A stretch of DNA of 64,000 nucleotides, taken from contig DBLZ01000042.1 of assembly GCA_002297545.1 (NCBI GenBank), forward strand, positions 2,374-66,373, read 5' to 3'. Position numbers and translations under genes: made by a program. Under the pieces are notes generated by a model, which was not told the origin of the DNA, ran no database searches, and saw only the letters and a list, made by a program, of their open reading frames with translations. Shown piece after piece: positions 9,676 to 52,525 of this stretch (positions within the stretch are counted from its first letter, which is position 1; the number at the start of each line of letters is the position of its first letter). This stretch comes from Prevotellaceae bacterium UBA711 (GTDB taxonomy: Bacteria > Bacteroidota > Bacteroidia > Bacteroidales > Bacteroidaceae).

Positions 9676-10540
9676 TCACCTTCCACCCTTTGCCTTGGGG
9701 GTGAACCTATACCTGAACGTCAACGTTGCATATTGATGTAGGAAGCGTTCGCCACCCTCGGTGTGGGTGGTGGCAGTGATGTCGGCATAGACATGCTTCT
9801 GGTTGTTGAGGAGGTCATGACCATAGAGTATCAGCTCAGCACGGTTCTGCATGAAGGAGAAGTCCACCTGTGCATTCAGCAACACCTGGCTACCGTTCAG
9901 GATGGCAGAGTCATACCCACGGTCGAGAATGTACCGGGGCGAGAGGGTAAACTTCCACTGTCCCAGCTTGTAGCGCAGTCGCAACTCCGTGGTATAGTTG
10001 AACAAGTTGCGCGTGGTCTGGGCCGGGTCGCTATAGGAATGACGGTTCCACCGAAAAGTATGGAACGAATAGGCCAGCCAGTCGCCGCCGGTGTACATGA
10101 GCGCAAGTTTGTCCTGCAGCAGCGACTGTCCATGACGGTTGTACGTCATGCCCGTGGCATCGTCCACTATGGTCATGATACCATAGCGCCCGTCATACGT
10201 TCCTGAGACGACATTGCTCAGCATCAGCTCCTTGGCCGGGTTGCACTCGTAGGAAAGGCGTGCACTCCACACGTCGCCACCGCGCACGTTGCGCTTCTGT
10301 TCGGTGTAGGCACCTACATGTGAATCGTAGTGCAGGACGGTGGCAATGGGGTCAATGCTCCGTTGATAATTGAACGAGAATGACAAGGCCTGACTGTGCT
10401 TTGCCCGCATCATGGAGAACTGCAGTCCTATGTCGATTGTATAGGACTTTTCCAGGTCGGGATTGCCCTTGCGTATGTACAGAGGATTAGTATTGTCGGT
10501 GTAGGCTATGCAGTCCATAATGTCGGCAGGTTTTATAATC
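9676..10540 (-). pseudogene. C-terminal fragment of an outer-membrane beta-barrel (OMP_b-brl_3 / TonB-receptor-like) gene split by the prophage
   Basis: Beta-barrel-type alternating sequence, ..IIKPADIMDCIAYTDNTNPLYIRKGNPDLE.. motif, C-terminal ...TLTFRYRF. There is no plausible N-terminus. The matching N-terminal fragment is at 50676-52525. Confidence 0.75.
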
Positions 10541-10726: not shown

Positions 10727-13700
10727 TTACGCTACTTCGACTATCGCCTTATACGCGACCACGCTTTCGGCCTTCACGATTTTGCCGCGGAAGGCGAGAC
10801 GCGACCCCATATTCGTGTTAGCGAACGACGCATCATAACCCGCATTCACGCACAACACACCGCCACTCGGGTACGCGCTGGTGACGCTACGGTAAACCGC
10901 ACGCGCTGAGGATAAGCCTATCAAGTACTTGTCTCCATAGTAGGTAGAGCTACTGCCGTTGACAGTACCTACAGGAACTACATCCATGTATTTGCCATGG
11001 TAGACTGCCGTTATCCACTGGTCATTGGCGGTCTTACCCTGGACCATACGTGTGGTGCCGTCGGGCATCCATATACGCCATTTGCCGACATTGCCACTGT
11101 CGTTGGGTAGGTCTACATTGTCCATCATGTCGCACTTGTGACCGTATATATCTTCGTAACCGAGACAGCTGATATTGTTGACCTGGGTCACTGTCGTCCT
11201 GCCGAAATCTTCCTTGATCAGATACCATGCGTATTGGTGGACTACACCATCTACCATGCTGTTGGTGATGCCGTGGTCTATGGCGTAGGCTTCATCAAAG
11301 CCAATGGTATCCTGCATGCCGTATTTGGCCGTGCCGCCGGTAATCCTGCTATTGGTATTAGAGCCTGCGCCGCACTGCTCCTGGCTATTTCTGCGGCCAT
11401 ACTTGGCATAGAACAGGTTGGCTATACGAGAATGCATCATGGCGTCTATTTGCTGCATGCCTCTGCTCACGCTGTAGTAGTGGAAGTCGGTCCATGTCAT
11501 GCTGGCGGCTGTACTGCCGCCACTGATGACGGCACGGAGCGTGGTACCTACTAAGCTGGAGCCAACTATGGCACACATATGTTCGTCATAGGCTACCCAG
11601 TCGGGTTCCATATCCTCTATCCTGTCGCTGTTGCTCAGTACTACTTTGTCAAACTCTGCCGTGTTCAGAATGGAAAAATGGAGCAGTACGGAATTCTTTG
11701 GCACATCTGATATGATGTACATACCAGGTTCAAATTTGCAACCCAATATGGGCACAATGACCGTATCCACTACCCTACCCTCTGCATCGGTAAAGACACT
11801 GCCCACAAGGTTGGTACCGGGTACTGTCGGGAAACGTACCCTCTTATGTACTGAGACATCCACCTTGCAGACGGAATAGATGCTGTCTGTACTTATAGAG
11901 TCCATTATGGTAGCTTTACCGGCCATGACCTTCTTTCCAGGAATGTAGCCTCCACTCAACTTCTTAATGTCATCCAATGTCAATACCGTGGCTTCAGGAA
12001 TCGCCGGCATCCTGTCTTTGGAATTGGCGCTGAAACAACTATAGTGCTTATTTCTAAGATAGTCATTGATACCCTTTCCCCAGTAGAACGGTTCGTACAT
12101 CATAAAGTCGCCTTCACTGCCATCCAGCCTGGCCGGTGTGCCATCTGTATAGTAGTTAGAGTTGGTGTCATCCAACGGACTGTAGGTCATCTCGCCGTCC
12201 AAATTATTCATTATGGTATCCACGCCTACCATCTTCACGTTGCGTGTGGAGGCTTTCCTTGTAACCTTGGCCAGGACACGGTGGCGCTTCTTCAGTATGG
12301 CCGAGATGTGACCACTTGGCACGTACTCTGTGCCACTGTTGCTGCCAGTGCCGTTGTCAAGATTGGTGACATTAGCGTCATCGGTAATACTGTCGTCAAA
12401 CTCTATCATAGTGTACTCGGGCAACACGATATTCAACTCGTCATAGTGAGCCGTCCATTTGGCAAGGTCTTCGTCTGAGGGATACCGATTAAGCCTGTAT
12501 GTTCCTATTAGCTTGCATTCAGGCGTGAAGTTACTCTTTGCATCCACTCCTCCTGCGGTCATATACCTATTAAGCAGCGTGCCGTCTCCTTCCATATCCA
12601 CACCGGTGATACGCATGTTCTTTATGTTGGCACACCTGCCCAGCAACGTCTGCCAGTCAAGATTTGGACATCCGGCGAAGATGAATGTACCGATATTGGC
12701 ATAGCTCTCTATCAAAAGGCCATCTGGTTTCAGTTGGGCAAGATACTCCAGCCTCAACGCTGTAAGCGTGCGTGGCAAGTATGCAGTGGCCAACGGGGCG
12801 CCATGGGCGAAGTTCACACTCTCAACCTCAGTACCTCCTGCGTCAAGGAACTCCAGCTTATTTTGGTTACTCAAGTCAAGTTCTTTGGATGTGCTGCTGC
12901 CCGTCTTGGCATGCTTCTGGTTTCTGACATTGAGCCTGCGCAGAGACCTGCAGGAATCTATGACAAGCCACCAGCCTGTAGAACCGCCGGTCTTTGCTTC
13001 CAGGTTCAGTTCACGCAACACCTTGCATTTGCCAAGGTCCAAGCCGTTCTTGAGGTGTTCGGCTGCGTCTGTCATGTCAAGGACCTCCATGCGGCTTGCG
13101 CCATAGAGCCTGACGGGGTCGTTCACCGTAAGGTTACGTGTGATACTCAAGTCTGCGGTCTCGCCTTCCTGTACGATACCTGTGTTGGCTATGTTGGGCG
13201 AATTATTCGTTCCGTAGCCAAAGGCGTAAACCTCGTTGGCGGTGATACGTATCACATCAGCATCATCGGAGGCGGAACGGGACAAGTACATGTCCACGTT
13301 GTCGGAGGTAAAGGTGCTTGTGCCGTACTTTGCGTCCAACAAGGCAAAACGGTTACGGATGAAGAACTCCCGGTGTGCCCTGTTGGAACCTTGCAGAGCG
13401 TATATGAACGGCCATACCTTGCCGTACATCTCCTGAATGGCAGGACGGATGTACTTTATCTCGCCAGACTTGTTGAAGGCTCTATCCGACCAGTTGCCTG
13501 CCTGCTCGTTGTTGAACATGTCAAGCACGCGTTCATCTGTCATCACGCCACGGAGGTTGTTAGCCAGGCGTCTGAGGTCTTCCTGCAGGTTGGCCAGGAC
13601 GAGGTTCCAAAGCCAGCTGTCCCTGCCCTCGAAGGCATACTTGGCGGCCTCGGCATCATAGGTGTCGCGGTCTGTGGTGTACTGATATACGAGGAAACAG

Positions 13701-16700
13701 TCATTACGCTTGCCCAACTGTGTGTCACCATCGTAATAGGTAATGTACCACTTCAATCCGTCCCAGGTACGGAGCATCATGTTCTTGGCACGCTGGTCCA
13801 CAGAGAGGTAGTAGTCGGTCCATAGATAGTATGTCAGGATGAAGTCCTTGTCAAAGTACTGGTCTATCTCGTCCTTGAATTTCTGGCTGACGAAGGTGGA
13901 CAGGTCATTGGAGTCGGCTCCAGCGGGCACACAATTCCTTATCCATCCGAACAAACGCCTTACAGCATTACGTTGAGCTTCGGTCAGGCCAGCCCATTTC
14001 ACGTCGTCCGGGTAATTCGTTTCCAGCCCGGCATCGAAATTGGCCGCCACATCATCATCACTGTCGCTTTGGAACAAGCACAGTTTCTCACCGTTGTTCA
14101 ACGTCTCAAAGGTCATGGGCATGGACGGATTGAAGCCGCTGACATTCGTCATGCCGAACAAATCCTCGCTCTTGGACTTTTCATTGTTAAAATTATACTG
14201 GCCGTAATACTCGCTTTCCCCATCCACGGTCTCGGCACAGAATACGTCTATGGGGAAACCATCTATGGCTGTCCTGACGTTAATGGCGGACAACTGATTG
14301 CCTCCGTTCTCATACTGGTGACGCTGCGGAGGGGTGAGCAGTCCAAGTTCCTTCATGGAATCATTGAATAGCTTGGCTCCACCGGTATTCATGGACATGG
14401 AACTGTCGGAATAGTCTGACTTCAACGTATACAGATTCATAGGGATTGCTCCGGGGCGCATGGGGTACCTGTTCTCCCCGTAAGGGTCCTTCACACCGTT
14501 TACGGTGAAGCTGAGGAGTTCACCGCCTTTGGCGTAGTAGATGCGGATGTTCTTGCTCGGGTACTTAGTAGACGATGTTCCCTGTATGCGGATGTAGCAG
14601 TCCCGCAGGACGAAATCATACTCTTTGCCAAACGGGGAGTAGAAATACACGTCGGCCTTGAAGTCGGTCTTCTTGTTGTTCTCAGCATACACGTCATCCA
14701 GCTTGTTTTTGCGAACAATGCGGAGGACGCCCTTGCCCTTGGCACGCAGTTTGTCGATATCCACACCACCCTTGTCTCCAAGGATGTCGTTATCATCAAA
14801 GAGCGTCATCATCTCATCAGAACTTTCGGCATCAACTATGCGGTTGTCAAGCTCCTCGTCATCAGATATGGCACGATTGTAGATGCGGATGCTGCGTATC
14901 TCCACATCTGCCTCCGAACTATCTATGACAATACTCTGCGGTACGTCTTGGGCGAAATTGAATGAGGTATCATACACGTCAGCACCTGTCCTGTTGCCGT
15001 CCACATAGATGTGCATGAGCCTGTTGTCGTCACGGGTACAGACAGTGAAGGCTACCTTCATCCAACGGTCGGAGACATAGTTGGTGCCCAGCTTTATTTC
15101 ACGTGTCACAAGTTCATCGTCCTCGTTGGTGTAGTCCACGGTCTGTCCTGTCTTGAAACTTGCGTTCTCGGCGGTAAAGAGTAGCCCCTTGCCGTCGTGG
15201 ATGCAGCTGACCACATTGGCGCTGCGCTTCATGACGTTGCTCACCTTCATGGTCATCTCTATTGTGATGCCAGTAGACTTGATATCGGAAGCAAAGGGCT
15301 TGTAGTCTATCGTGGCTTTGGCCCCGTTGGTGAGCCTGAGGCTCCCGCCCGTCCATCCGTTGGAGTTCCAGTCAAAGTCCTCGAATATGGTCTTGATGCC
15401 ATTGGACTCCCATCGCGCTGGGTCACTTTCGCTGTTGCTGCGTCCGGCCGCATCAAACTTGGCTATTATGCCGTACAGAGCCTCCGACAGGTCTATGCTA
15501 CTATCCTTAACGTCAATGTTCAGGGTATAGCTTTTCGAACCGACCTTCATCATGAGGGTGTTGGTACCCTTGGAAGTGAAGCGGTTAATATACTTCTGCA
15601 TCTGACGCGGGGCATTGATGGTACTGGTATGCTTGCCGTTAAGGTACACATCTACTTTAGCCGGGGTAGCCGCAGGGTCGTAAGCAATGTAGTCAAAGCT
15701 CATCTGCTCGTACTGGGCTGCAGTGAGAACAGGGGGGATATGTGCGGATTCAAGTATCCTGCTTAACGTGTCAGTATACTTTATACCTATAAAGGGGGCA
15801 TTCTGCCCGGCCTTGAGGATGTCAATGTAAATGCTGTCGCTCTTCAGGCCGTTGCGCTCAGCTACAAGCTGGACGGAATGCCAACCGGGGGTGAGGGACG
15901 AGCCGTTGATGGAGAACGACCCATTGACCGTGCCACTCTTGTTGATGGTCTGCGATATTGGTGTTGTCGCCCCGTCCAAATACATGGACACGTCTTTCGT
16001 TCCGCTGCCTGTTATCGTAAAGGGTATCTCTATGATGTCGGAACTTTTGTATCCACCTCCAGAAATGGTGTCGGCAAGGTTGTAGCTGCTCGTCAACGTC
16101 AAGGTTATCACGTTGATGCTGGTATAGGCCTGCTTGGTCTGCCTGGTGCCGTCTTCCGTAGTAACGTTGGCCTTTACATATATGTCAGTGGTGCCTACAA
16201 GAAGATAGTCGGATATATCAAGGTGGTATGTGCCTGCGCTTACGCCCTTGATAGTCTGCTCGTATGTAGTGGTAGTACCACGGCTAACAATGATTGTGAG
16301 ATCGGCCTTGATGCCGGTGGCATCTCCTTCGGAGTTTACGTGGTTATAAGTATAAGCCAGTTCTGCATGTCCGCCTTCCTTCACCTGCGCCTTATCAAGG
16401 GCTGCTGTCAGGATGATACGGCTTGCCGTGGTACCACCACTGCCACCACCGCCAGTGAACTCCGCAGATGCTATGACGCCGCCCTGCTTGTTCAAGATGT
16501 TCAGGGTGTTCTTGTCACCGTCAGGGATGACCTCAACTCCTCCCACTGCAGCATCCCCTATTTCCTTAATCCTACGAGTAACAACTGCATTCTGCACAGG
16601 ATTGGTGCTGTCTTCGTCAAGACTCTCGTCCACCTGTACCTGGTCTATTCTGAGAGACACGTTACCGTCCGCATCCGGGGATACCTCCTCTCCGTTGAGA

Positions 16701-17617
16701 GAGATGGACTTTATCTTGCCGCCGCCATACTCTTCCCAACTGGCAGGGATGAGAAAACTGGATATATCACTGCCCACAAAGCGATAGTCCTTCCATTTGC
16801 CCGCACTCTCCTCAAAGGTGATTATCATACCAGGCTTGTCCTCGTCATCAATACCGGCATCTACCAACGCTGCGATGGCGCTGTCCTTGGTATAGTAGCC
16901 TTCGACAAGCGGTTGCTCGGAGGTCACGTTGTAGAAACCACTGCCGGAACCACTACTGCAGAATTCTACAAGTGTTCCCTCATTATCATCCCACACATAG
17001 CCTGTGCCACCCAAAAGATATACCTTGTCCTTCTGTATGCTGTCTTTGCTTTCATTAAGATACAGGTCTACAGTGGGCCAATCCAGATGGTACTCCACTC
17101 CTGTTGCTCCGTCTGTCCGGCAGGCAAAAAGCTTCTTAGCCTGTACATAGACTATACTACCACCATCAGGTGCTGCTGTCATGGCCAGTTGGGCATCTGG
17201 AACCATCTCATCAAACCTTGCTGTGGTTCCGCCCTCCGCCATACTTATACGGCTGTCATATCGGCCAATGTTTGAAGCAGCCTCGTTGGCCGCTTCAGTT
17301 GCCTCCAATGCCGTCTGAGCAGCCCGAGAGGCCGTATCGGCTGCCGACTCCGCAACGCCAGAGGCCTGGATGGCCATCTCGGAGGATGTATTCGCATTCT
17401 TCGCTGCTGCATTAGCCACTCCTGCTGCATCGGTGGCAGGCTTTGACAATAGCGACAACGGTGCCAGTACAAGGCTGTCACCCTGCATGGCTGGAAGGCC
17501 GGTAAGTCCATTCAATGATGTGGCCACGCCCAACTCCTTTATGTCTGTACTCTCTGCTTTGATGTCATTGAGAATCTCTTTCTTAATGTCGTTCTTCTCT
17601 TGTTCGGTTAGTGCCAT
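10727..17617 (-). CDS. giant multidomain receptor-binding/tail fibre protein (DGR target); ~2296 aa from ATG 17617
   Basis: Longest ORF in the window (alternative start 17671). Motif-level recognition of a ConA/LamG-like block (WMKVAFTV..MHIYVDGNRTG), a CotH-like block (IRIQGTSSTKYPSKN, DQRAKNMMLRTWDG..YYDGDTQLG) and an LRR-like block. The C-terminal segment carries the VR. Confidence 0.8.
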   Translation of the reverse strand: MALTEQEKNDIKKEILNDIKAESTDIKELGVATSLNGLTGLPAMQGDSLVLAPLSLLSKPATDAAGVANAAAKNANTSSEMAIQASGVAESAADTASRAAQTALEATEAANEAASNIGRYDSRISMAEGGTTARFDEMVPDAQLAMTAAPDGGSIVYVQAKKLFACRTDGATGVEYHLDWPTVDLYLNESKDSIQKDKVYLLGGTGYVWDDNEGTLVEFCSSGSGSGFYNVTSEQPLVEGYYTKDSAIAALVDAGIDDEDKPGMIITFEESAGKWKDYRFVGSDISSFLIPASWEEYGGGKIKSISLNGEEVSPDADGNVSLRIDQVQVDESLDEDSTNPVQNAVVTRRIKEIGDAAVGGVEVIPDGDKNTLNILNKQGGVIASAEFTGGGGSGGTTASRIILTAALDKAQVKEGGHAELAYTYNHVNSEGDATGIKADLTIIVSRGTTTTYEQTIKGVSAGTYHLDISDYLLVGTTDIYVKANVTTEDGTRQTKQAYTSINVITLTLTSSYNLADTISGGGYKSSDIIEIPFTITGSGTKDVSMYLDGATTPISQTINKSGTVNGSFSINGSSLTPGWHSVQLVAERNGLKSDSIYIDILKAGQNAPFIGIKYTDTLSRILESAHIPPVLTAAQYEQMSFDYIAYDPAATPAKVDVYLNGKHTSTINAPRQMQKYINRFTSKGTNTLMMKVGSKSYTLNIDVKDSSIDLSEALYGIIAKFDAAGRSNSESDPARWESNGIKTIFEDFDWNSNGWTGGSLRLTNGAKATIDYKPFASDIKSTGITIEMTMKVSNVMKRSANVVSCIHDGKGLLFTAENASFKTGQTVDYTNEDDELVTREIKLGTNYVSDRWMKVAFTVCTRDDNRLMHIYVDGNRTGADVYDTSFNFAQDVPQSIVIDSSEADVEIRSIRIYNRAISDDEELDNRIVDAESSDEMMTLFDDNDILGDKGGVDIDKLRAKGKGVLRIVRKNKLDDVYAENNKKTDFKADVYFYSPFGKEYDFVLRDCYIRIQGTSSTKYPSKNIRIYYAKGGELLSFTVNGVKDPYGENRYPMRPGAIPMNLYTLKSDYSDSSMSMNTGGAKLFNDSMKELGLLTPPQRHQYENGGNQLSAINVRTAIDGFPIDVFCAETVDGESEYYGQYNFNNEKSKSEDLFGMTNVSGFNPSMPMTFETLNNGEKLCLFQSDSDDDVAANFDAGLETNYPDDVKWAGLTEAQRNAVRRLFGWIRNCVPAGADSNDLSTFVSQKFKDEIDQYFDKDFILTYYLWTDYYLSVDQRAKNMMLRTWDGLKWYITYYDGDTQLGKRNDCFLVYQYTTDRDTYDAEAAKYAFEGRDSWLWNLVLANLQEDLRRLANNLRGVMTDERVLDMFNNEQAGNWSDRAFNKSGEIKYIRPAIQEMYGKVWPFIYALQGSNRAHREFFIRNRFALLDAKYGTSTFTSDNVDMYLSRSASDDADVIRITANEVYAFGYGTNNSPNIANTGIVQEGETADLSITRNLTVNDPVRLYGASRMEVLDMTDAAEHLKNGLDLGKCKVLRELNLEAKTGGSTGWWLVIDSCRSLRRLNVRNQKHAKTGSSTSKELDLSNQNKLEFLDAGGTEVESVNFAHGAPLATAYLPRTLTALRLEYLAQLKPDGLLIESYANIGTFIFAGCPNLDWQTLLGRCANIKNMRITGVDMEGDGTLLNRYMTAGGVDAKSNFTPECKLIGTYRLNRYPSDEDLAKWTAHYDELNIVLPEYTMIEFDDSITDDANVTNLDNGTGSNSGTEYVPSGHISAILKKRHRVLAKVTRKASTRNVKMVGVDTIMNNLDGEMTYSPLDDTNSNYYTDGTPARLDGSEGDFMMYEPFYWGKGINDYLRNKHYSCFSANSKDRMPAIPEATVLTLDDIKKLSGGYIPGKKVMAGKATIMDSISTDSIYSVCKVDVSVHKRVRFPTVPGTNLVGSVFTDAEGRVVDTVIVPILGCKFEPGMYIISDVPKNSVLLHFSILNTAEFDKVVLSNSDRIEDMEPDWVAYDEHMCAIVGSSLVGTTLRAVISGGSTAASMTWTDFHYYSVSRGMQQIDAMMHSRIANLFYAKYGRRNSQEQCGAGSNTNSRITGGTAKYGMQDTIGFDEAYAIDHGITNSMVDGVVHQYAWYLIKEDFGRTTVTQVNNISCLGYEDIYGHKCDMMDNVDLPNDSGNVGKWRIWMPDGTTRMVQGKTANDQWITAVYHGKYMDVVPVGTVNGSSSTYYGDKYLIGLSSARAVYRSVTSAYPSGGVLCVNAGYDASFANTNMGSRLAFRGKIVKAESVVAYKAIVEVA
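10794..10906 (-). repeat. DGR variable repeat (VR) including a 14-nt GC-rich IMH-like end (gggtcgcgtctcgc)
   Basis: 89/113 nt identical to the TR at 37044-37156 when read on the minus strand. 12 of 20 core mismatches fall on TR adenines. Encodes ARAVYRSVTSAYPSGGVLCVNAGYDASFANTNMGSRLA. Confidence 0.8.
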
Positions 17618-37363: not shown

Positions 37364-38665
37364 ATGCGCAGAGAAGGCCATATCATAGAGGAAATAGTGG
37401 ACTACGCCAATATGGCGGAGGCCTTCAAACAGGTGCTACGCGGCAAAAAGCGAAAACTATCGCGTCAAGGACGGAACATGCTTGCACATAAGGAGGATGT
37501 CATCGCGGAACTGTCCGCACAAATTGCCGAAGGCACATTCATGATCAGCGGTTATCGGGAAAGAACTATCACGGAGGGAGGAAAGCTCCGCCGCATACAA
37601 GTTCTCACCATGAAAGACCGCATCGCCGTACACGCCATCATGGCGATAGTGGACAGGCATCTGCGCAAACGTTTCATACGCACCACCTCCGCCAGCATCA
37701 AGAACCGGGGGATGCACGACCTACTGGACTACATCTGCAGGGACATGGAGCAAGACCCTAAAGGAACAAGGTTCTGCTACAAGTTCGACATCTCCAAGTT
37801 CTATGAGAGTACCGGGCAGGATTTCGTGATGTATTGTGTCCGAAGGGTATTCAAGGACAAAAAGCTCATCTCCATGCTGGACGGTTTCGTTCACATGATG
37901 CCGCAGGGGCTCAGCATCGGGTTGCGTTCCTCCCAGGGACTGGGCAACCTGCTCTTGTCTGTGTATCTGGACCATTACCTCAAGGACAAGTACGGCATAC
38001 GCTATTTCTACCGCTATTGTGATGACGGTGTCGTGCTTTGTGAAACGAAAGCGGAACTGTGGACAATTCGTGACATCATCCATTCTCTGGTGGAACAGAT
38101 AGACCTCAAGGTGAAAGCCAACGAGCGTGTGTTCCCTGTAACCGAGGGTATCGACTTTCTGGGATATGTCATCTATCCCGACCATGTGCGTCTGCGTAAG
38201 CGCATAAAGCAGAAATTCGCCCGCAAGATGCACGATGTGAAGAGCAGGAAAAGACGGCGTGTATTGACAGCAAGTTTCTACGGAATGGCAAAACATGCCG
38301 ACTGTATAATGTTGTTTCATAAATTAACAGGCAAACAAATGAAATCCTTTAAAGATTTGAATGTCGCTTACAAGCCGGAAGACGGCAAGAAGCGGTTTGC
38401 GGGTGCGGTGGTGAGCATCCGCGAGTTGGTAAACCTCCCCATCGTGGTCAAGGACTTCGAGACGGGTGTCAAAACAAGCCAGGGCGAAGACCGCTGCGTA
38501 GTGGCCATCGAAGTATCGGGTGAGCCAAAGAAATTCTTTACCAACTCGGAGGAAATGAAGAACATCCTCCAGCAAGTGAGTGAAGTGCCGGACGGTTTTC
38601 CCTTTGAAACCACCATCAAGTCGGAAACATTCGGCAAGGGTCGAACAAAATACATTTTCACATGA
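37364..38665 (+). CDS. DGR-type reverse transcriptase with a ~100-aa C-terminal extension
   Basis: 433 aa. Motif A FDISKFYES, IGLRSSQ (aa 185-191, the IGxxxSQ signature) and YCDD (aa 218-221, nt 38015-38026). Confidence 0.9.
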   Translation: MRREGHIIEEIVDYANMAEAFKQVLRGKKRKLSRQGRNMLAHKEDVIAELSAQIAEGTFMISGYRERTITEGGKLRRIQVLTMKDRIAVHAIMAIVDRHLRKRFIRTTSASIKNRGMHDLLDYICRDMEQDPKGTRFCYKFDISKFYESTGQDFVMYCVRRVFKDKKLISMLDGFVHMMPQGLSIGLRSSQGLGNLLLSVYLDHYLKDKYGIRYFYRYCDDGVVLCETKAELWTIRDIIHSLVEQIDLKVKANERVFPVTEGIDFLGYVIYPDHVRLRKRIKQKFARKMHDVKSRKRRRVLTASFYGMAKHADCIMLFHKLTGKQMKSFKDLNVAYKPEDGKKRFAGAVVSIRELVNLPIVVKDFETGVKTSQGEDRCVVAIEVSGEPKKFFTNSEEMKNILQQVSEVPDGFPFETTIKSETFGKGRTKYIFT

Positions 38666-39144
38666 GAAGAATTGAAGGAACAGCCGGGGTTAAGCCCATC
38701 GAATGCACCCACCCGGCCAAAAACAAATGGCGCATACGCTGGAATATCCAACCGAATAACGACGGCTCGGCCACATACATGGAGGAGGAGTTCAACCACC
38801 GCCCCACTGACGAGGAAATCAGACAGACCATCATCGGCTGGTACAACGCCCAGACAGAGGAAAACATTCTGTCCGGCTTTGAATGGAACGGCATGAAAGT
38901 GTGGCTCTCCACGGAAAACCAGTTCAACTACAAGGCTGCCTATGACCTCGCCATACAGACTGACGGGGCAACGCTGCCTGTCACGTTCAAGTTCGGTACT
39001 GACGATACGCCATGCTATCACACATTCAACTCGGTCGGAGAACTGGCAGACTTCTATACCAAAGCTATGACGCACATACAGTCGTCACTGGAAAGAGGCT
39101 GGAACAATAAGGATGCCTTCCGCCCGGATACATACACGCTATGA
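38662..39144 (+). CDS. DUF4376-like protein, translationally coupled to the RT
   Basis: ATGA start/stop overlap with the RT. Pattern ..ILSGFEWNGMKVWLSTENQFNYKAAYDLA..LPVTFKFG.. resembles DUF4376. Confidence 0.45.
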   Translation: MRRIEGTAGVKPIECTHPAKNKWRIRWNIQPNNDGSATYMEEEFNHRPTDEEIRQTIIGWYNAQTEENILSGFEWNGMKVWLSTENQFNYKAAYDLAIQTDGATLPVTFKFGTDDTPCYHTFNSVGELADFYTKAMTHIQSSLERGWNNKDAFRPDTYTL

Positions 39145-39344: not shown

Positions 39345-39599
39345 ATGAAGGTATTTGAGATAGTATATTTGAACAAAGATTTGCTGAAAATCTTTCAAGA
39401 AACAGGCATAAGATCCGATGACGTGCGATACATTGAGCTGTTCAATGAATACCGCACGATGGTGGCCAATAAGTATAAGGTGTCATATATAGTGGCTTCG
39501 CTCGCCACAAAATATGGCATCAGTGAGCGCAAGGTATATTACCTTATCAAACTGTTCAAATCGGACTGCATCCTGCATGCAGCGCAAAACGCGACATAA
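39345..39599 (+). CDS. Mor/C-family-like transcription activator
   Basis: C-terminal HTH VASLATKYGISERKVYYLIK resembles the Mor family. Start taken at the internal ATG 39345. Confidence 0.45.
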   Translation: MKVFEIVYLNKDLLKIFQETGIRSDDVRYIELFNEYRTMVANKYKVSYIVASLATKYGISERKVYYLIKLFKSDCILHAAQNAT

Positions 39600-39625
39600 A
39601 CGCCTCTTTTAAGCTGCAGTCGTAC

Positions 39626-39633
39626 TACCTTTG
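39626..39633 (+). promoter_or_regulatory. Bacteroides-type -7 promoter element (TACCTTTG)
   Basis: TAnnTTTG match, 24 nt upstream of the ATG at 39657. Confidence 0.4.
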
Positions 39634-39656
39634 CACATGTTTTCAAAAGTACGACC

Positions 39657-40295
39657 ATGAACAAGTATCATCAATTACTACACAGGATTCTCCTTGAGGG
39701 GAAGAACCAGACCAACAAGAAAGGCAATATCCGCTACCTGCTCAATGAGCTATTGAGCCTTACCCCTGCCGACCTCCTTGAGATATTCGAAGGCCACGGC
39801 ATCGCCAGGAAGAAGCTGCGCTCAGAGCTGCGTCTCTTCATGCAGGGTGAGCGCAACGTGGATAAGTATCGCGACGCAGGCATACACTGGTGGGACTATT
39901 GTGGCTCCATCCTCGTAAATTCATATCCCACATATTTCGAGAAGCTGCCGCCGCTCATTGACAAGATAAACCTGGAGAAACGCAACAGCAAAAACTATGT
40001 GCTGTTCCTCGGCTCCACCAACGTGGAGAGCAATCAGGCTCCATGCCTTAGCCTTGTGCAGTTCCAGATTGACGACGGGGAACTGGTGATATCGGCATAC
40101 CAGCGCAGTTCTGATGCCAACCTGGGACTGCCTGCCGACATATACCATCTGTATCTTATAGCCCGGCAGATAAACCTGCCGCTAAAGTCCATCACCATAC
40201 ATCTTGCCAACGTACACATCTACAATAACAACATCGATCATACACGCTCGCTGCTGGACGGCAACGAGGATGTAAAATTTGAACTGAACGTATAA
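39657..40295 (+). CDS. thymidylate synthase-family enzyme, predicted deoxycytidylate C5-modifying (hydroxymethylase/methylase-like)
   Basis: 212 aa. QAPCLSLVQFQ..YQRSSDANLGLPADIYHL aligns to ThyA APCHAFFQFY..YQRSCDVFLGLPFNIASY. The catalytic Cys is at aa 130. Asp161 occupies the Asn177 position. Confidence 0.75.
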   Translation: MNKYHQLLHRILLEGKNQTNKKGNIRYLLNELLSLTPADLLEIFEGHGIARKKLRSELRLFMQGERNVDKYRDAGIHWWDYCGSILVNSYPTYFEKLPPLIDKINLEKRNSKNYVLFLGSTNVESNQAPCLSLVQFQIDDGELVISAYQRSSDANLGLPADIYHLYLIARQINLPLKSITIHLANVHIYNNNIDHTRSLLDGNEDVKFELNV

Positions 40296-41150
40296 ATGAG
40301 AAAGCACTATCTGTCTGCCCCACTCCCTTTTGTGGGACAAAAGCGAATGTTCGCACGTGAGTTTATCAATGTCCTGAAGCAATTTCCCGAGGATACCGTC
40401 TTTGTCGACTTATTTGGCGGTTCCGGCTTGCTGTCGCATATCGCCAAATGCCAGAAGCCAAAGGCGACTGTTGTTTACAATGATTTTGACAATTATCGGA
40501 AGAGGTTGGATGCCGTACCACAGACAAACGAGCTGCTGGCCGATTTGCGAAAGATTGTATCAGGCATTCCACGCCTCAAGCCCATCACTGGTGAAAAACG
40601 AGACGACGTGCTTGAGTGTATCAAAGGATATGAACGGCGCTATGGCTATGTTGACTACATCACTCTGTCGCCATCGCTCCTGTTCTCCATGAAATATAAG
40701 CTGTGCATAGAGGACATACAAAAGGAGACGTTCTATAATAAAATCAGGGCTACTGACTATCCATTGTGCACGGACTACCTTGACGGCATCACCGTGGTAT
40801 CTTGTGATTACAGGAAATTGTACCGACAGTACAAGGACAATCCCGACGTAGTATTTCTGGTAGACCCTCCATACCTGAGTACCGATGTTGGCACATATAA
40901 CATGTACTGGAAAATGTCCGACTATCTGGATGTATTGAGCATCCTTGCCGGGTATCGCTTTGTGTACTTCACTTCTAACAAGTCCTCCATCCTGGAGCTG
41001 TGCGAATGGCTCGGAAGGAACCGCACCTTGGGCAATCCGTTTGAGCACTGTAAAAAAGTGGAATTCAACACCACCATGAACTACAATTCCTCCTATACGG
41101 ACATGATGCTATACACCAATACGGAGGATGGCATTAGGATTGCGTCCTAA
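40296..41150 (+). CDS. Dam-family (D12 class) N6-adenine DNA methyltransferase
   Basis: 284 aa. PFVGQKR, SAM motif DLFGGSG, catalytic DPPY. The ATG directly abuts the upstream TAA. Confidence 0.8.
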   Translation: MRKHYLSAPLPFVGQKRMFAREFINVLKQFPEDTVFVDLFGGSGLLSHIAKCQKPKATVVYNDFDNYRKRLDAVPQTNELLADLRKIVSGIPRLKPITGEKRDDVLECIKGYERRYGYVDYITLSPSLLFSMKYKLCIEDIQKETFYNKIRATDYPLCTDYLDGITVVSCDYRKLYRQYKDNPDVVFLVDPPYLSTDVGTYNMYWKMSDYLDVLSILAGYRFVYFTSNKSSILELCEWLGRNRTLGNPFEHCKKVEFNTTMNYNSSYTDMMLYTNTEDGIRIAS

Positions 41151-41170: not shown

Positions 41171-41223
41171 AACGCAACAGAAGGGCGTCCCAAGCAATTC
41201 CCGGGACGCCCTTCTGTTGCGTT
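41171..41223. terminator. bidirectional terminator, 21-bp perfect stem
   Basis: aacgcaacagaagggcgtccc / gggacgcccttctgttgcgtt between convergent transcription units. Confidence 0.7.
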
Positions 41224-50564: not shown

Positions 50565-50675
50565 GTAAACGCTTCGTTTTACGCCACCATTCCCCCCATC
50601 CCACTCTAACTCTTTAAGTACTAGAGTATTTAGGCTACGCTAAGGCACAATCGAACATATACGCTTCGTTCTGTG
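50565..50675 (-). promoter_or_regulatory. attL-like prophage end: terminal and sub-terminal transposase-site repeats
   Basis: On the minus strand: cagaACGAAgcGTatatg (core 50665-50669) and aaaaACGAAgcGTttaca (core 50573-50577), 92 bp apart. This resembles the split L1/L2 spacing of Mu attL. Confidence 0.55.
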
Positions 50676-52525
50676 CCCCATAGTTTGTTGTCGAAGGCCA
50701 ACGTACCCTTGAGCATCATCTGCGGCCTCAACAAATAGTCTGCCTCCATGAACGAACGCATAAGCGCAAGTGTGCGTGTGGCAAGTGTATCCAGCGCAGC
50801 TCTGCGATAACGTGTCCGCTCGCGTATGATGCTTGCCCTCATGGAGCGTTTCATGCTGAATCGCCCCTTCTTGTAGGTGGACTCCATCGTAAAGGAGTTG
50901 TCCCAATTGTTGTCCCTGCGGCACGCGCTGTTCTCCAGGTCGGGAGTACCGTCGCGCCATCGCCGGTCGTCGAGGCTGCTGTATATGTAGGACGACTCCC
51001 ACATGCCGTGGAACATGGTACGCTTGCCCGTAGCACCGTTGAAGTCCAGCCCCATAGTCGCGTTCAAGCGGTGGTGCGGCGTACTGAAACGCTGGCTGTC
51101 CGTGATGACCGTGCCATGCCTGAAGTACTGATATTCGCCCTGCGACCATCCTTCTTCCTTGGCGTTGTCGTAGTCCACACGCACGATGGCCGCCACGGAG
51201 CTTTTCTTGAAATAGTGTGTCAGGCGGGTGTTGCCCTTCACGTTGACGCCCTCGGTTGTGGCCATAGCATTACAGGTGGATGCGTTGACCTCAGTTCCCG
51301 GGCCCTCTGCCTCCATGGTCTCCAGTTCGGAGAAATCATCCCTGCGTCCACGCGCGTAAGCGACATTCATGTCCACGGTGAGCGTGTTCCTCTGTCCAAG
51401 GTTAAAGTACGAGGCAAAGTCCAAAGGCACCTTCAGGTTGTGCGTGTAAACCCGCGACGTGGTCATCCGCCGTATGGGCGTGGCATCGTGGACAAAGGCA
51501 AGCATACTCTCCCACCCCTCCCCGGTCTCGTCCCAATGGTTGGCACCCGCGGTGATGTCCCATCGGCTGTCGCGCTTCACCTCGTAGCCGGGCTTCCACA
51601 GGTGGCGGTAGGCCACGGCTCCCACCTGCTGGCGTATGGGAAGACAGGCCTGACGGAAGCCGCGTCCGTTTATCGTCCTGTAGTCCACACGCTCGGGGTC
51701 GTTGGCCACGCGAGCGTAGACCATAAAGGGATCTGTGTCGCTCAACTTCGTCGCATCGATGTTGACGGCATACTCCTTGCCGGCATATACCTTGGCCTGT
51801 GCCTCGGTATGGAACCTGTCCATGAAGCCGGGCTTTATCCTGACGTCCAGCACACGCTCCTCGTTGCCATCCGCCACTCCGGTCCTCTCCTGCAACTCGC
51901 CGGAGCGGCCATACGCCTGAACGCTCTCCACGGCCTTCACTGGCACCATGTTCAGCAGCATGGCCTCGTCCAGGGCGTCACGACCATTCATCATCATCTT
52001 CAGCGACTCACCGTCCCACAGGAGCTTGCCATCCCGTATGCTCACGCCGGGCAGCCTCTCTATCAGGGCCACGAGCCTGTCGCCTTCCTCCATATTGAAG
52101 GCATCGGGATTGAACACCACAGTATCGCCCCTCATGTAGAAGCGCCTCATCCGGGCATCCACGGCCACCTCGCGCATCAACTCTGCACCGGGTCGCAGGT
52201 ATATGGTGTCCGGACTTATGGTATCGTTTCCACTCATGCCTATCCGTCGGACCGGCTCGGAACCGTAGCCAAAGTACTTGGCCGTTATGGCAAGGATGTT
52301 TCCGGCCTGCATCGGACAATAGAAGCATCCGGCCGTGTCCGCCGTCAGCGTATAGCTCATGTTGCCCTTTTCCGAGGCACTCTCCGTCACCTCTATTCGT
52401 ACCCCGGAGAGCTGTTCCCCGGTTTCAGCATCCACAACACGGCCTTTGAGGATCTCGGCCCTGGCAGACAGCAATGCCACAGACATGATGGCGAAGAGCA
52501 ACCACGCCTTCTTCATCGGCATCAT
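50676..52525 (-). pseudogene. N-terminal fragment of the outer-membrane beta-barrel gene split by the prophage
   Basis: Signal peptide, then a carboxypeptidase-regulatory-like domain (ILKGRVVDAETGEQLSGVRIEV), then barrel strands. The frame runs into the prophage end and stops at 50630. Confidence 0.75.

Follow-up and report, generated by a model that had tools for sequence, protein, structure and literature searches.

A predicted cytosine-nucleotide-modifying thymidylate synthase homolog beside an orphan adenine methylase in a Hankyphage-like prophage

A Mu-like transposable prophage of the Hankyphage type, lying in a 64,000-nucleotide stretch (hereafter the window) of contig DBLZ01000042.1 from Prevotellaceae bacterium UBA711, encodes a homolog of thymidylate synthase (TS) that is not a canonical ThyA. 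To judge by its sequence, the pocket of this 212-aa protein (39657-40295, + strand) is of the cytosine type, and modification of deoxycytidine monophosphate (dCMP) at C5 is the best reading of its residues, a hydroxymethyl product being favoured over a methyl one. The gene abuts a second one, for an N6-adenine DNA methyltransferase of 284 aa (40296-41150, +). Public records name the two products 'thymidylate synthase' (DAC76694) and 'DNA methyltransferase N6' (DAC76695) in Hankyphage p00, and other Hankyphage records label the first 'thymidylate synthase / ThyA'. Neither gene is discussed in the Hankyphage papers that could be searched, where the methylase serves only as a landmark of the right genome end. 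The TS homolog is best described as a member of a known phage family of cytosine-nucleotide-modifying TS homologs found in an unusual setting. A pocket of this type beside an orphan methylase hints at chemical marking by the phage, either of DNA or of the nucleotide pool.

Fold, active site and subfamily of the TS homolog

Fold, profile score and catalytic residues all place the protein in the thymidylate synthase superfamily. It matches the Pfam family Thymidylat_synt (PF00303; E=7.2e-20, 71.7 bits for a cutoff of 24.3) and PHROG 160 ('thymidylate synthase'; 1.7e-28). An AlphaFold (AF2) model built from a 20-sequence alignment (pLDDT 94.1, pTM 0.91) superposes on ThyA structures with TMq values of 0.80-0.86; it replaced a single-sequence model that was unusable (pLDDT 45).

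We mapped the active-site residues with HMMER against the thymidylate synthases of the PDB and with MAFFT against E. coli ThyA, T4 gp42, RB69 gp48 and the ThyA of phage B40-8. The methods agree, and the alignment recovered the textbook numbering of the E. coli enzyme, residues K28, E60, C148, R168 and D179 of T4 gp42, and the RB69 gp48 signature. Both methods place Asp161, encoded by the GAC codon at 40137-40139 (+) in the motif LGLPAD, in the column of the specificity position, i.e., E. coli Asn177 and T4 Asp179. This is what the original prediction, made from the DNA letters alone, had proposed, and everything else it said of the protein sequence (a TS-like protein of 212 aa with an APC Cys130 and a YQRS.D block) was also confirmed. 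The catalytic Cys130 (Cys146 in E. coli; 40044-40046) belongs to the motif QAPC (40035-40046, +), in which Gln127 occupies the position of Leu143, and the block reads YQRSSD (aa 148-153).

Much of the TS core is kept: Glu58 (Glu57 here), Trp80 (Trp79), Tyr94 (Tyr93), Cys146, Gln165-Arg166-Ser167 (149-151), Asp169 (Asp153), Gly173, His207 (187) and Tyr209 (189). Within this core, Ser151, His187 and Tyr189 match the deoxyribose-binding set (PMC5175136). Relative to E. coli ThyA, the changes are Asn177 to Asp161, His147 to Leu131, Leu143 to Gln127, Ala142 to Asn, Cys168 to Ser, Arg126 to Lys112, Arg127 to Asn113 and, in common with T4, Arg21 to Lys. In ThyA, a C-terminal tail shuts the active site for hydride transfer. 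Here the C-terminus is about 33 residues shorter, ends roughly where T4 gp42 does, and has no folate-closing tail.

These features are conserved. Among 158 full-length copies (104 distinct sequences) drawn from IMG/VR and GTDB genomes, all mapped residues are invariant except at the position of Phe176, which is Ala, Ser or Val. The gene is present in 516 GTDB species genomes and is the most conserved of its block, with a median identity of 82% against 78% for the reverse transcriptase (RT), 69% for the methyltransferase and 62% for Avd. In a search of 1.84 billion representative proteins, all full-length neighbours down to 28% identity carry Asp at 177, and the closer ones have in common Gln143, Ser-Lys/Arg-Asn at 125-127 and the short C-terminus. 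All members of the Hankyphage group have Gln at 143, as do nearly all of the wider subfamily, within which position 126 switches between Lys and Arg. Three more distant proteins (P0241, P0259 and P0269) combine Asp177 with Leu143, Arg-Arg and a ThyA-like tail, and they branch outside the Gln143 subfamily.

In a neighbour-joining tree, the Gln143 subfamily (84% bootstrap) is sister to T4 gp42 and RB69 gp48 (joint clade 100%) and the N177 ThyA proteins of E. coli and B40-8 fall outside (98%), in a small, distance-based reconstruction with a risk of long-branch attraction that is supportive, not decisive. It was drawn without a verified dCMP methylase (Xp12) or a dUMP hydroxymethylase (SPO1). All eight NCBIfam equivalog models of ThyA score far below their cutoffs of 108-576 bits (at best 58 bits for a cutoff of 327), and the protein has none of Asn177, His147, Leu143, the Arg126'/Arg127' phosphate clamp and the C-terminal segment that characterise canonical ThyA. 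The Asp161 pocket, the substitutions, the loss of the tail, the failed ThyA models and the tree together make canonical synthesis of deoxythymidine monophosphate (dTMP) unlikely. The proposal of a cytosine-type enzyme distinct from ThyA, which predates our comparison with homologs, thus stands as a statement about the pocket.

The genomic context of distant members could be seen in a few cases. One Gln143/Asp177 member (L174, 249-1891) adjoins a gene for a PolA-type 3'-5' exonuclease/polymerase, and another, in an unrelated phage (L090, 2166-8478), lies among genes for NinG, Erf, SSB and a helicase; neither has an adjacent methylase. IMG/VR scans for the contexts of other distant members found none for P0142, P0140 and P0213 and one locus for P0182; in scans with broad alignments, Hankyphage copies took up the results, and look-ups of exact proteins gave contigs of 1-2 kb. 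There is no fusion of the TS homolog with the methylase: the longer homologs (P0001, P0072, P0126 and P0141) proved to be assembly chimeras, duplications or upstream extensions of the start.

Substrate, product and competing explanations

Characterised relatives provide residue rules for substrate and product. The change from Asn177 to Asp makes a TS act on dCMP, and the N177D/N229D mutants, as cited in PMC8670742, are dCMP methylases. Positions 177 and 147 are those that best separate cytosine-modified from unmodified phage contigs in the MetaGPA study (PMC8670742). At position 143, methyl products go with a bulky hydrophobic side chain, believed to keep water out, Asp or Glu correlates with hydroxymethyl or hydroxy products, and the replacement of Asp169 by Asn is the mark of flavin-dependent 5-hydroxy-dCMP synthases (PMC13326640). 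As for the sugar, Ser167 and Arg126' favour deoxyribose, whereas Ala and Lys at these positions favour ribose, as in MilA/BcmA (PMC5175136).

The combination found in the TS homolog matches no characterised class exactly. It has the Asp177 and the catalytic Cys of T4-type dCMP hydroxymethylases, but Gln127 is polar and not acidic at position 143. It shares Asp177 with dCMP methylases (Xp12-type or N177D-type), but neither the hydrophobic residue at 143 nor the C-terminal closure. Asp153 (Asp169) is retained in all homologs where RB69 gp48 has Asn in the same alignment, and by the residue rules the protein would not be a 5-hydroxylase. Relative to MilA/BcmA, Ser151 is of the deoxy type and Lys112 of the ribo type, at a position that varies between Lys and Arg in the subfamily; the enzyme is probably deoxy-specific (Ser167, His207, Tyr209), with Lys126 ambiguous. 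Naming the product as 5-hydroxymethyl- or 5-methyl-dCMP, as the original prediction did, goes beyond this evidence.

The best explanation overall, to which we give about equal measures of belief and doubt, is that the two genes form an accessory cassette for nucleic-acid modification, in which a dCMP C5-modifying enzyme and an orphan methylase act against restriction during lytic growth. The first gene would encode an active, dimeric, folate-dependent enzyme of the TS fold, whose Cys130 would attack a cytosine deoxynucleotide, in all likelihood dCMP, at C6 while Asp161 reads N3/N4. A one-carbon unit would then be moved to C5. Given the polar Gln143 and the absence of the tail, the exocyclic-methylene intermediate would more likely be hydrated, yielding 5-hydroxymethyl-dCMP, than reduced to 5-methyl-dCMP. 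This product could enter DNA through the host kinases and replisome, and the second gene would encode an independent orphan N6-adenine methyltransferase that marks DNA. A promoter ahead of the pair would switch both genes on in the lytic programme, which would provide two chemically different layers of protection against restriction. The role of Mom in phage Mu, to which the original prediction compared this module, is a reasonable analogy but only an analogy, and an anti-restriction role of that kind lies beyond the evidence.

Several observations weigh against this explanation. In Foldseek searches with the model, true ThyA structures outrank gp42-like proteins; such a ranking is unable to separate product classes. 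Gln143 differs from the Asp/Glu of characterised hydroxymethylases, making the product call an extrapolation, and Asn at Arg127 with Lys at Arg126 gives a phosphate/sugar pocket unlike that of all characterised enzymes acting on deoxynucleoside monophosphates (dNMPs). The tree carries the reservations given above, the TS homolog is found alone at some prophage ends or beside other genes (L129, L146, L037 and L158), and its expression kinetics differ from those of the methylase in phage jmh43 (see below). Most importantly, homology to p00 and Pfam searches of the remaining early-region and unassigned open reading frames revealed no dNMP kinase, dCTPase, glycosyltransferase or similar partner in the ~40 kb prophage; for the kinase and the dCTPase this agrees with the original prediction. 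In T4-type systems, modified dCMP reaches DNA with the help of partners of this kind. A transposable Mu-like phage is copied by the host replisome within intact host DNA, so that modification at the level of the pool would need host kinases and would be partial and not specific to the phage. In the study of RB69 and DLP3, the TS homolog alone led to trace incorporation in DNA, and robust levels required the cognate kinase as well (PMC13326640). This requirement, together with the lack of recognised phage helpers, limits our confidence that the product reaches DNA.

Because helper genes are lacking and the phage transposes, we keep as a serious rival, though an unlikely one, that the cytosine nucleotide is modified for the pool and not for DNA. 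The enzyme would then drain or mask dCMP, open a route to dTMP via deamination of 5-methyl-dCMP, or serve the prophage in defence or counter-defence, directed at superinfecting phages or at systems that deplete nucleotides. Apart from the missing kinase and dCTPase and a mode of replication that hampers phage-specific substitution in DNA, this would suit the stand-alone TS homologs of other temperate-type phage contexts and the housekeeping-type promoter box of the pair, and the induction in jmh43, weaker than that of the bulk lytic genes and with sizeable uninduced coverage, would fit basal, moron-like expression. Yet the TS homolog matches no defence model of PADLOC, all characterised Asp177 phage TS homologs feed DNA modification (PMC8670742, PMC13326640), the RB69/DLP3 homolog gave its trace incorporation in DNA without help, and distant relatives lie in replication modules, one of them beside a PolA-type polymerase gene. 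Returning to modification of DNA, a dCMP methylase (5-methyl-dCMP synthase) that leads to 5-methylcytosine DNA, as in Xp12, would account for Asp177 next to a TS-like core (Gln165, Arg166, Ser167, Asp169, His207, Tyr209) and for ThyA as structural neighbours, and N177D by itself turns TS into such an enzyme in the work cited in PMC8670742. We consider it decidedly unlikely, as Gln stands in place of the water-excluding Leu143, the C-terminal segment for closure and hydride transfer is absent (rule from PMC13326640), and the Asp177 proteins that do have Leu143, Arg126/127 and the tail branch outside the subfamily.

Two further alternatives concern the substrate. An ordinary TS, converting dUMP to dTMP and boosting dTTP during phage replication beside an unrelated methylase, would agree with the GenBank labels, with the fold and its best structural matches to ThyA, and with the many phages, B40-8 included, that have a real ThyA beside an adenine methylase. 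It becomes very improbable in the face of Asp at 177 in 104/104 distinct homologs, Leu at His147, Gln143, Asn127, the missing folate-closing tail, scores of at most 58 bits for ThyA equivalog cutoffs of 108-576 bits, the separation from N177 ThyAs in the tree (98%) and the dCMP methylase activity attributed to the N177D/N229D mutants in the citation of PMC8670742. An enzyme acting on the ribonucleotide CMP, like MilA/BcmA, and supplying 5-hydroxymethyl-CMP for RNA or a small-molecule pathway would explain Lys at Arg126', and the MilA A176S variant, with the same Ser and Lys pair as here, still hydroxymethylates CMP (PMC5175136). We regard it as scarcely plausible: the deoxy-type Ser167 is invariant, the subfamily has either Lys or Arg at position 126, no nucleoside-antibiotic genes are found nearby, and the gene belongs to a phage genome with relatives in replication modules.

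A bolder proposal, which we advance tentatively and regard as doubtful, is that the proteins form a distinct branch of the TS superfamily, defined by Gln143, Asp177, Leu147, Lys126/Asn127 and the absence of the tail. They would modify a cytosine nucleotide at C5 in a phage that is temperate and transposable and has no kinase or dCTPase of its own. One of the most prevalent phages of the human gut might then contain partially modified cytosines and mark the host DNA together with its own during replicative transposition, or might use the nucleotide outside DNA, and a hairpin embedded in the promoter might insulate translation, converging on the control of Mu com-mom. If a modified cytosine nucleotide is indeed made, public annotation is wrong in thousands of genomes, and the gut virome and methylome data for these phages, which are among the most widespread in human and animal gut Bacteroidales, may hold unrecognised modified bases. 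This would be natural pool-level modification of cytosine without kinase or dCTPase helpers, in a phage that transposes inside intact host DNA, and one would have to ask by what means, if any, self is told from host. The Gln143, tail-less signature would also extend the residue rules for predicting the products of TS homologs. If the enzyme is instead a plain dCMP methylase or hydroxymethylase with trace incorporation, the result is a useful re-annotation and nothing more.

The adenine methylase and the organisation of the pair

The second gene (40296-41150, +) encodes an orphan D12-class (alpha-type) N6-adenine DNA methyltransferase. Pfam PF02086 matches its N-terminal part alone (29.9 bits, cutoff 22), PHROG 56 matches at 2.6e-29, and the PADLOC model MTase_II (PDLC03268) covers it end to end (5.4e-55, aa 3-273). 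The motifs FVGQK (aa 12-16), DLFGGSG (aa 38-44) and DPPY (aa 190-193) follow the alpha order. The structures of T4 Dam are the only solved relatives, and the similarity to them is weak and collinear. The 'Dam-type' label given originally is right as regards the D12 class and fails for the Dam subfamily, since the NCBIfam model TIGR00571 gives 22.7 bits for a cutoff of 114.85. The label 'D12-class adenine methylase' is justified by these profile and motif matches, whereas 'Dam (GATC)' is not. No endonuclease gene lies beside the methylase, the neighbours being the TS homolog and convergent phage morphogenesis genes, so that the locus has no adjacent cognate endonuclease as a restriction-modification system would.

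The prophage (10520-50600) avoids GATC, with 16 observed sites for 114 expected (observed/expected ratio 0.14, against 0.53 in the host flanks and 0.77 in Hankyphage p00), which argues against reliance on GATC methylation. The avoidance suggests a restriction pressure particular to this lineage, one that is not offset by the methylase of the phage. CTAG is absent from the prophage (observed/expected 0/51) and the flanks (0/37.5) and almost so from p00 (1/28).

The TS stop codon TAA (40293-40295) is directly followed by the methylase ATG at 40296 (TAAATG; GTATAAATGAGA), as had been noted before. In related loci, the methylase is adjacent to and co-oriented with the TS homolog in 155 cases out of 161. 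The TS homolog comes before the methylase in about two thirds of the loci and after it in about one third, the genes are mostly ~0-4 nt apart, against ~95-100 nt in the p00 type, and hp44 precedes the pair in either order. The two genes are probably co-transcribed in the variant of the window. In phage B40-8, a lytic phage of B. fragilis, an N6-adenine methylase of the pfam05869 type lies immediately 5' of a canonical ThyA with Asn177, His147, Leu143, Arg126/127 and a full C-terminus, and a second methylase is nearby (L171, 2502-3792). Adjacency of a TS and a methylase is thus not specific to Asp177 enzymes. The Hankyphage-like prophage of Bacteroides clarus YIT 12056 (L158, 10926-12495) has no methylase; its TS homolog is followed by a fusion of an ABC-ATPase with a GNAT-acetyltransferase and by a protein with a folate-type formyltransferase domain (PF00551, 2.6e-9), which may be an alternative partner set.

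Expression of the pair was followed in published work on Hankyphage jmh43 by RNA-seq after silencing of the repressor (PMC12135933 S2 Data). At 1, 2, 6 and 22 h, the log2 fold changes were 1.99, 1.54, 1.77 and 4.37 for 'ThyA' and 3.88, 4.24, 1.62 and 2.40 for the methylase. The profile of 'ThyA' resembles those of RT, Avd and hp44, and at 1-2 h that of the methylase is like those of the bulk lytic genes. The induced programme thus includes both genes, but they are not co-regulated in jmh43. Early on (1-2 h), the genes of the diversity-generating retroelement (DGR), hp44 and 'ThyA' are induced by log2 fold changes of ~1.4-2.0, against ~2.6-4.9 for the rest of the phage (PMC12135933 S2, S6 Data). 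The same genes have a sizeable read coverage in the non-induced control (PMC12135933), which suggests a basal expression of the DGR-hp44-'ThyA' block in lysogens. The idea of a coupled module is therefore supported in part, by the conserved, often abutting, neighbourhood. Against it stand the lone TS homologs, the lower conservation of the methylase, the ThyA-methylase pair of B40-8 and the different kinetics in jmh43, and we take the TS homolog and the methylase to be two independent functions sharing one accessory slot.

Directly upstream of the pair, the place it always takes, a small protein with a helix-turn-helix (84 aa; 39345-39599, +) resembles Hankyphage hp44 (53% identity; PHROG 17790, E=2.4e-26). 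Matches to the Pfam family Mor (PF08765) are below threshold for the versions of the window (E=0.0098) and of p00 (E=0.0036), and hp44 may be a Mor/C-like activator. Next, 23 nt 5' of the TS ATG, TACCTTTG (39626-39633, +) is a candidate Bacteroidetes -7 promoter box (TAnnTTTG). With 45 copies for 26 expected, the window is rich in this motif, so a single copy alone is weak evidence for the promoter that the original prediction assigned to the pair. That assignment is better sustained by the homologous loci: an A..TTTG box lies 15-30 nt 5' of the ATG of the first gene, whichever gene leads, in 47 of 60 non-redundant upstream regions. An 8-bp inverted repeat, GTCGTACT...AGTACGAC (39619-39655, +), brackets the box and stops 1 nt short of the ATG. 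Taken alone, it does not stand out (-10 kcal/mol, z = -1.5), but perfect arms of at least 7 bp ending 0-4 nt before the ATG occur in 20/60 non-redundant regions versus 1.2% of shuffles (loci L010-L170). The arms differ by lineage: GCCGTACT/AGTACGGC, GTCTCGCT/AGCGAGAC, GTCTCAAA/TTTGAGAC and ACCGTTTT/AAAACGGT, with TTTCCTCC/GGAGGAAA in the p00 type. The upstream arm is mostly 5' of the promoter box, which implies that the hairpin could form only in read-through transcripts. The hairpin at the start codon may mask the translation start of such transcripts, which would recall the control of Mu com-mom.

Past the methylase, between the convergent genes, lies a perfect hairpin with a 21-bp stem and an 11-nt loop (41171-41223, no strand assigned; -45.3 kcal/mol, z = -7.3), with none of 200 shuffles as stable. 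The strong terminator proposed for this place is borne out in the stability of the stem but not in its sequence type, the U-tract being poor and the hairpin absent from the list of a consensus terminator scan. It is a probable bidirectional terminator.

Prophage setting and comparison with known systems

The prophage spans about 10.52-50.6 kb of the window. These limits follow roughly from an outer-membrane receptor-like gene, the insertion site, which is split into halves on either flank: an N-terminal part with CarboxypepD_reg (9676-10518, -) and the C-terminal half of an OMP_b-brl_3 barrel (50630-52525, -; profile positions 197-408 of 408). Searching the window by tblastn with the proteins of Hankyphage p00 (BK010646) revealed homologs of MuA, MuB, the terminase, the portal, the lysin and tail proteins, as well as of the giant DGR target protein. 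The MuA and MuB homologs agree with the earlier view of a phage that replicates by transposition. A megablast of the 2-kb region against GenBank phages gave no match, and the relation to Hankyphage came from the protein-level search.

The genome is rearranged relative to p00. The RT-Avd-hp44-TS-methylase block, at the right genome end in p00, has been relocated as a single unit and is here mid-genome, between the early region and the packaging genes. The DGR target (10727-17617, -) and the RT/Avd block (37364-39144, +) are ~20 kb apart and mutually inverted, while they are contiguous in p00; the DGR template repeat is expected just 5' of the RT/Avd block. We weighed a connection of the cassette with the DGR but dropped it, as seven loci have hp44, the methylase and the TS homolog straight after morphogenesis genes with no RT/Avd in front.

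The closest known system is the orthologous pair of Hankyphage p00, where the TS homolog is 81% and the methylase 65% identical in amino acids (RT 78%, Avd 61%, hp44 53%) and the order hp44-TS-methylase downstream of the DGR RT and Avd is the same. The p00 genes are at the right end and separated by a gap of ~95 bp, whereas those of the window abut each other. Among characterised enzymes, T4 gp42 shares the TS fold, the catalytic Cys, Asp at 177/179, a residue other than His at 147, the lack of a folate-closing tail and Lys at Arg21, and belongs to the sister group in the tree. It differs by its low identity (~14-16%), by Asp where the TS homolog has Gln at 143 and by Arg/Arg instead of Lys/Asn at 126/127. 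T4 is also virulent and has the gp1 kinase, the gp56 dCTPase and glucosyltransferases, none of which was recognised in this temperate and transposable phage. The 5-hydroxy-dCMP synthases RB69 gp48 and DLP3 gp80, in the same broad clade, resemble the TS homolog in Asp177 and a polar residue at 143, but they have Glu143 and the Asp169Asn change, where the TS homolog keeps Asp169, and they occur in arabinosylation clusters with a kinase.

E. coli ThyA shares the fold (TMq ~0.82) and residues Glu58, Trp80, Tyr94, Cys146, Gln165, Arg166, Ser167, Asp169, His207 and Tyr209; Asp177, natural here, was engineered in the N177D mutant (N229D in L. casei). MilA/BcmA have Asp at the equivalent of 177 and Lys at Arg126', but MilA, which works in a Streptomyces antibiotic pathway, carries a large extension at its C-terminus, and its residues at Ser167 and 143 are Ala and Asp, respectively. 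The methylase resembles T4 Dam and other D12-class enzymes in the alpha order of an N-terminal xxGxK, FxGxG and DPPY, and in being an orphan phage methylase. Finally, the cassette recalls com-mom as an accessory function for DNA modification in a Mu-like phage, placed at the right end in p00, with a small regulator-like gene upstream and a hairpin that abuts the start codon. The regulatory side of this parallel is inferred, there is no homology to Mom or Com, and the chemistry is entirely different.

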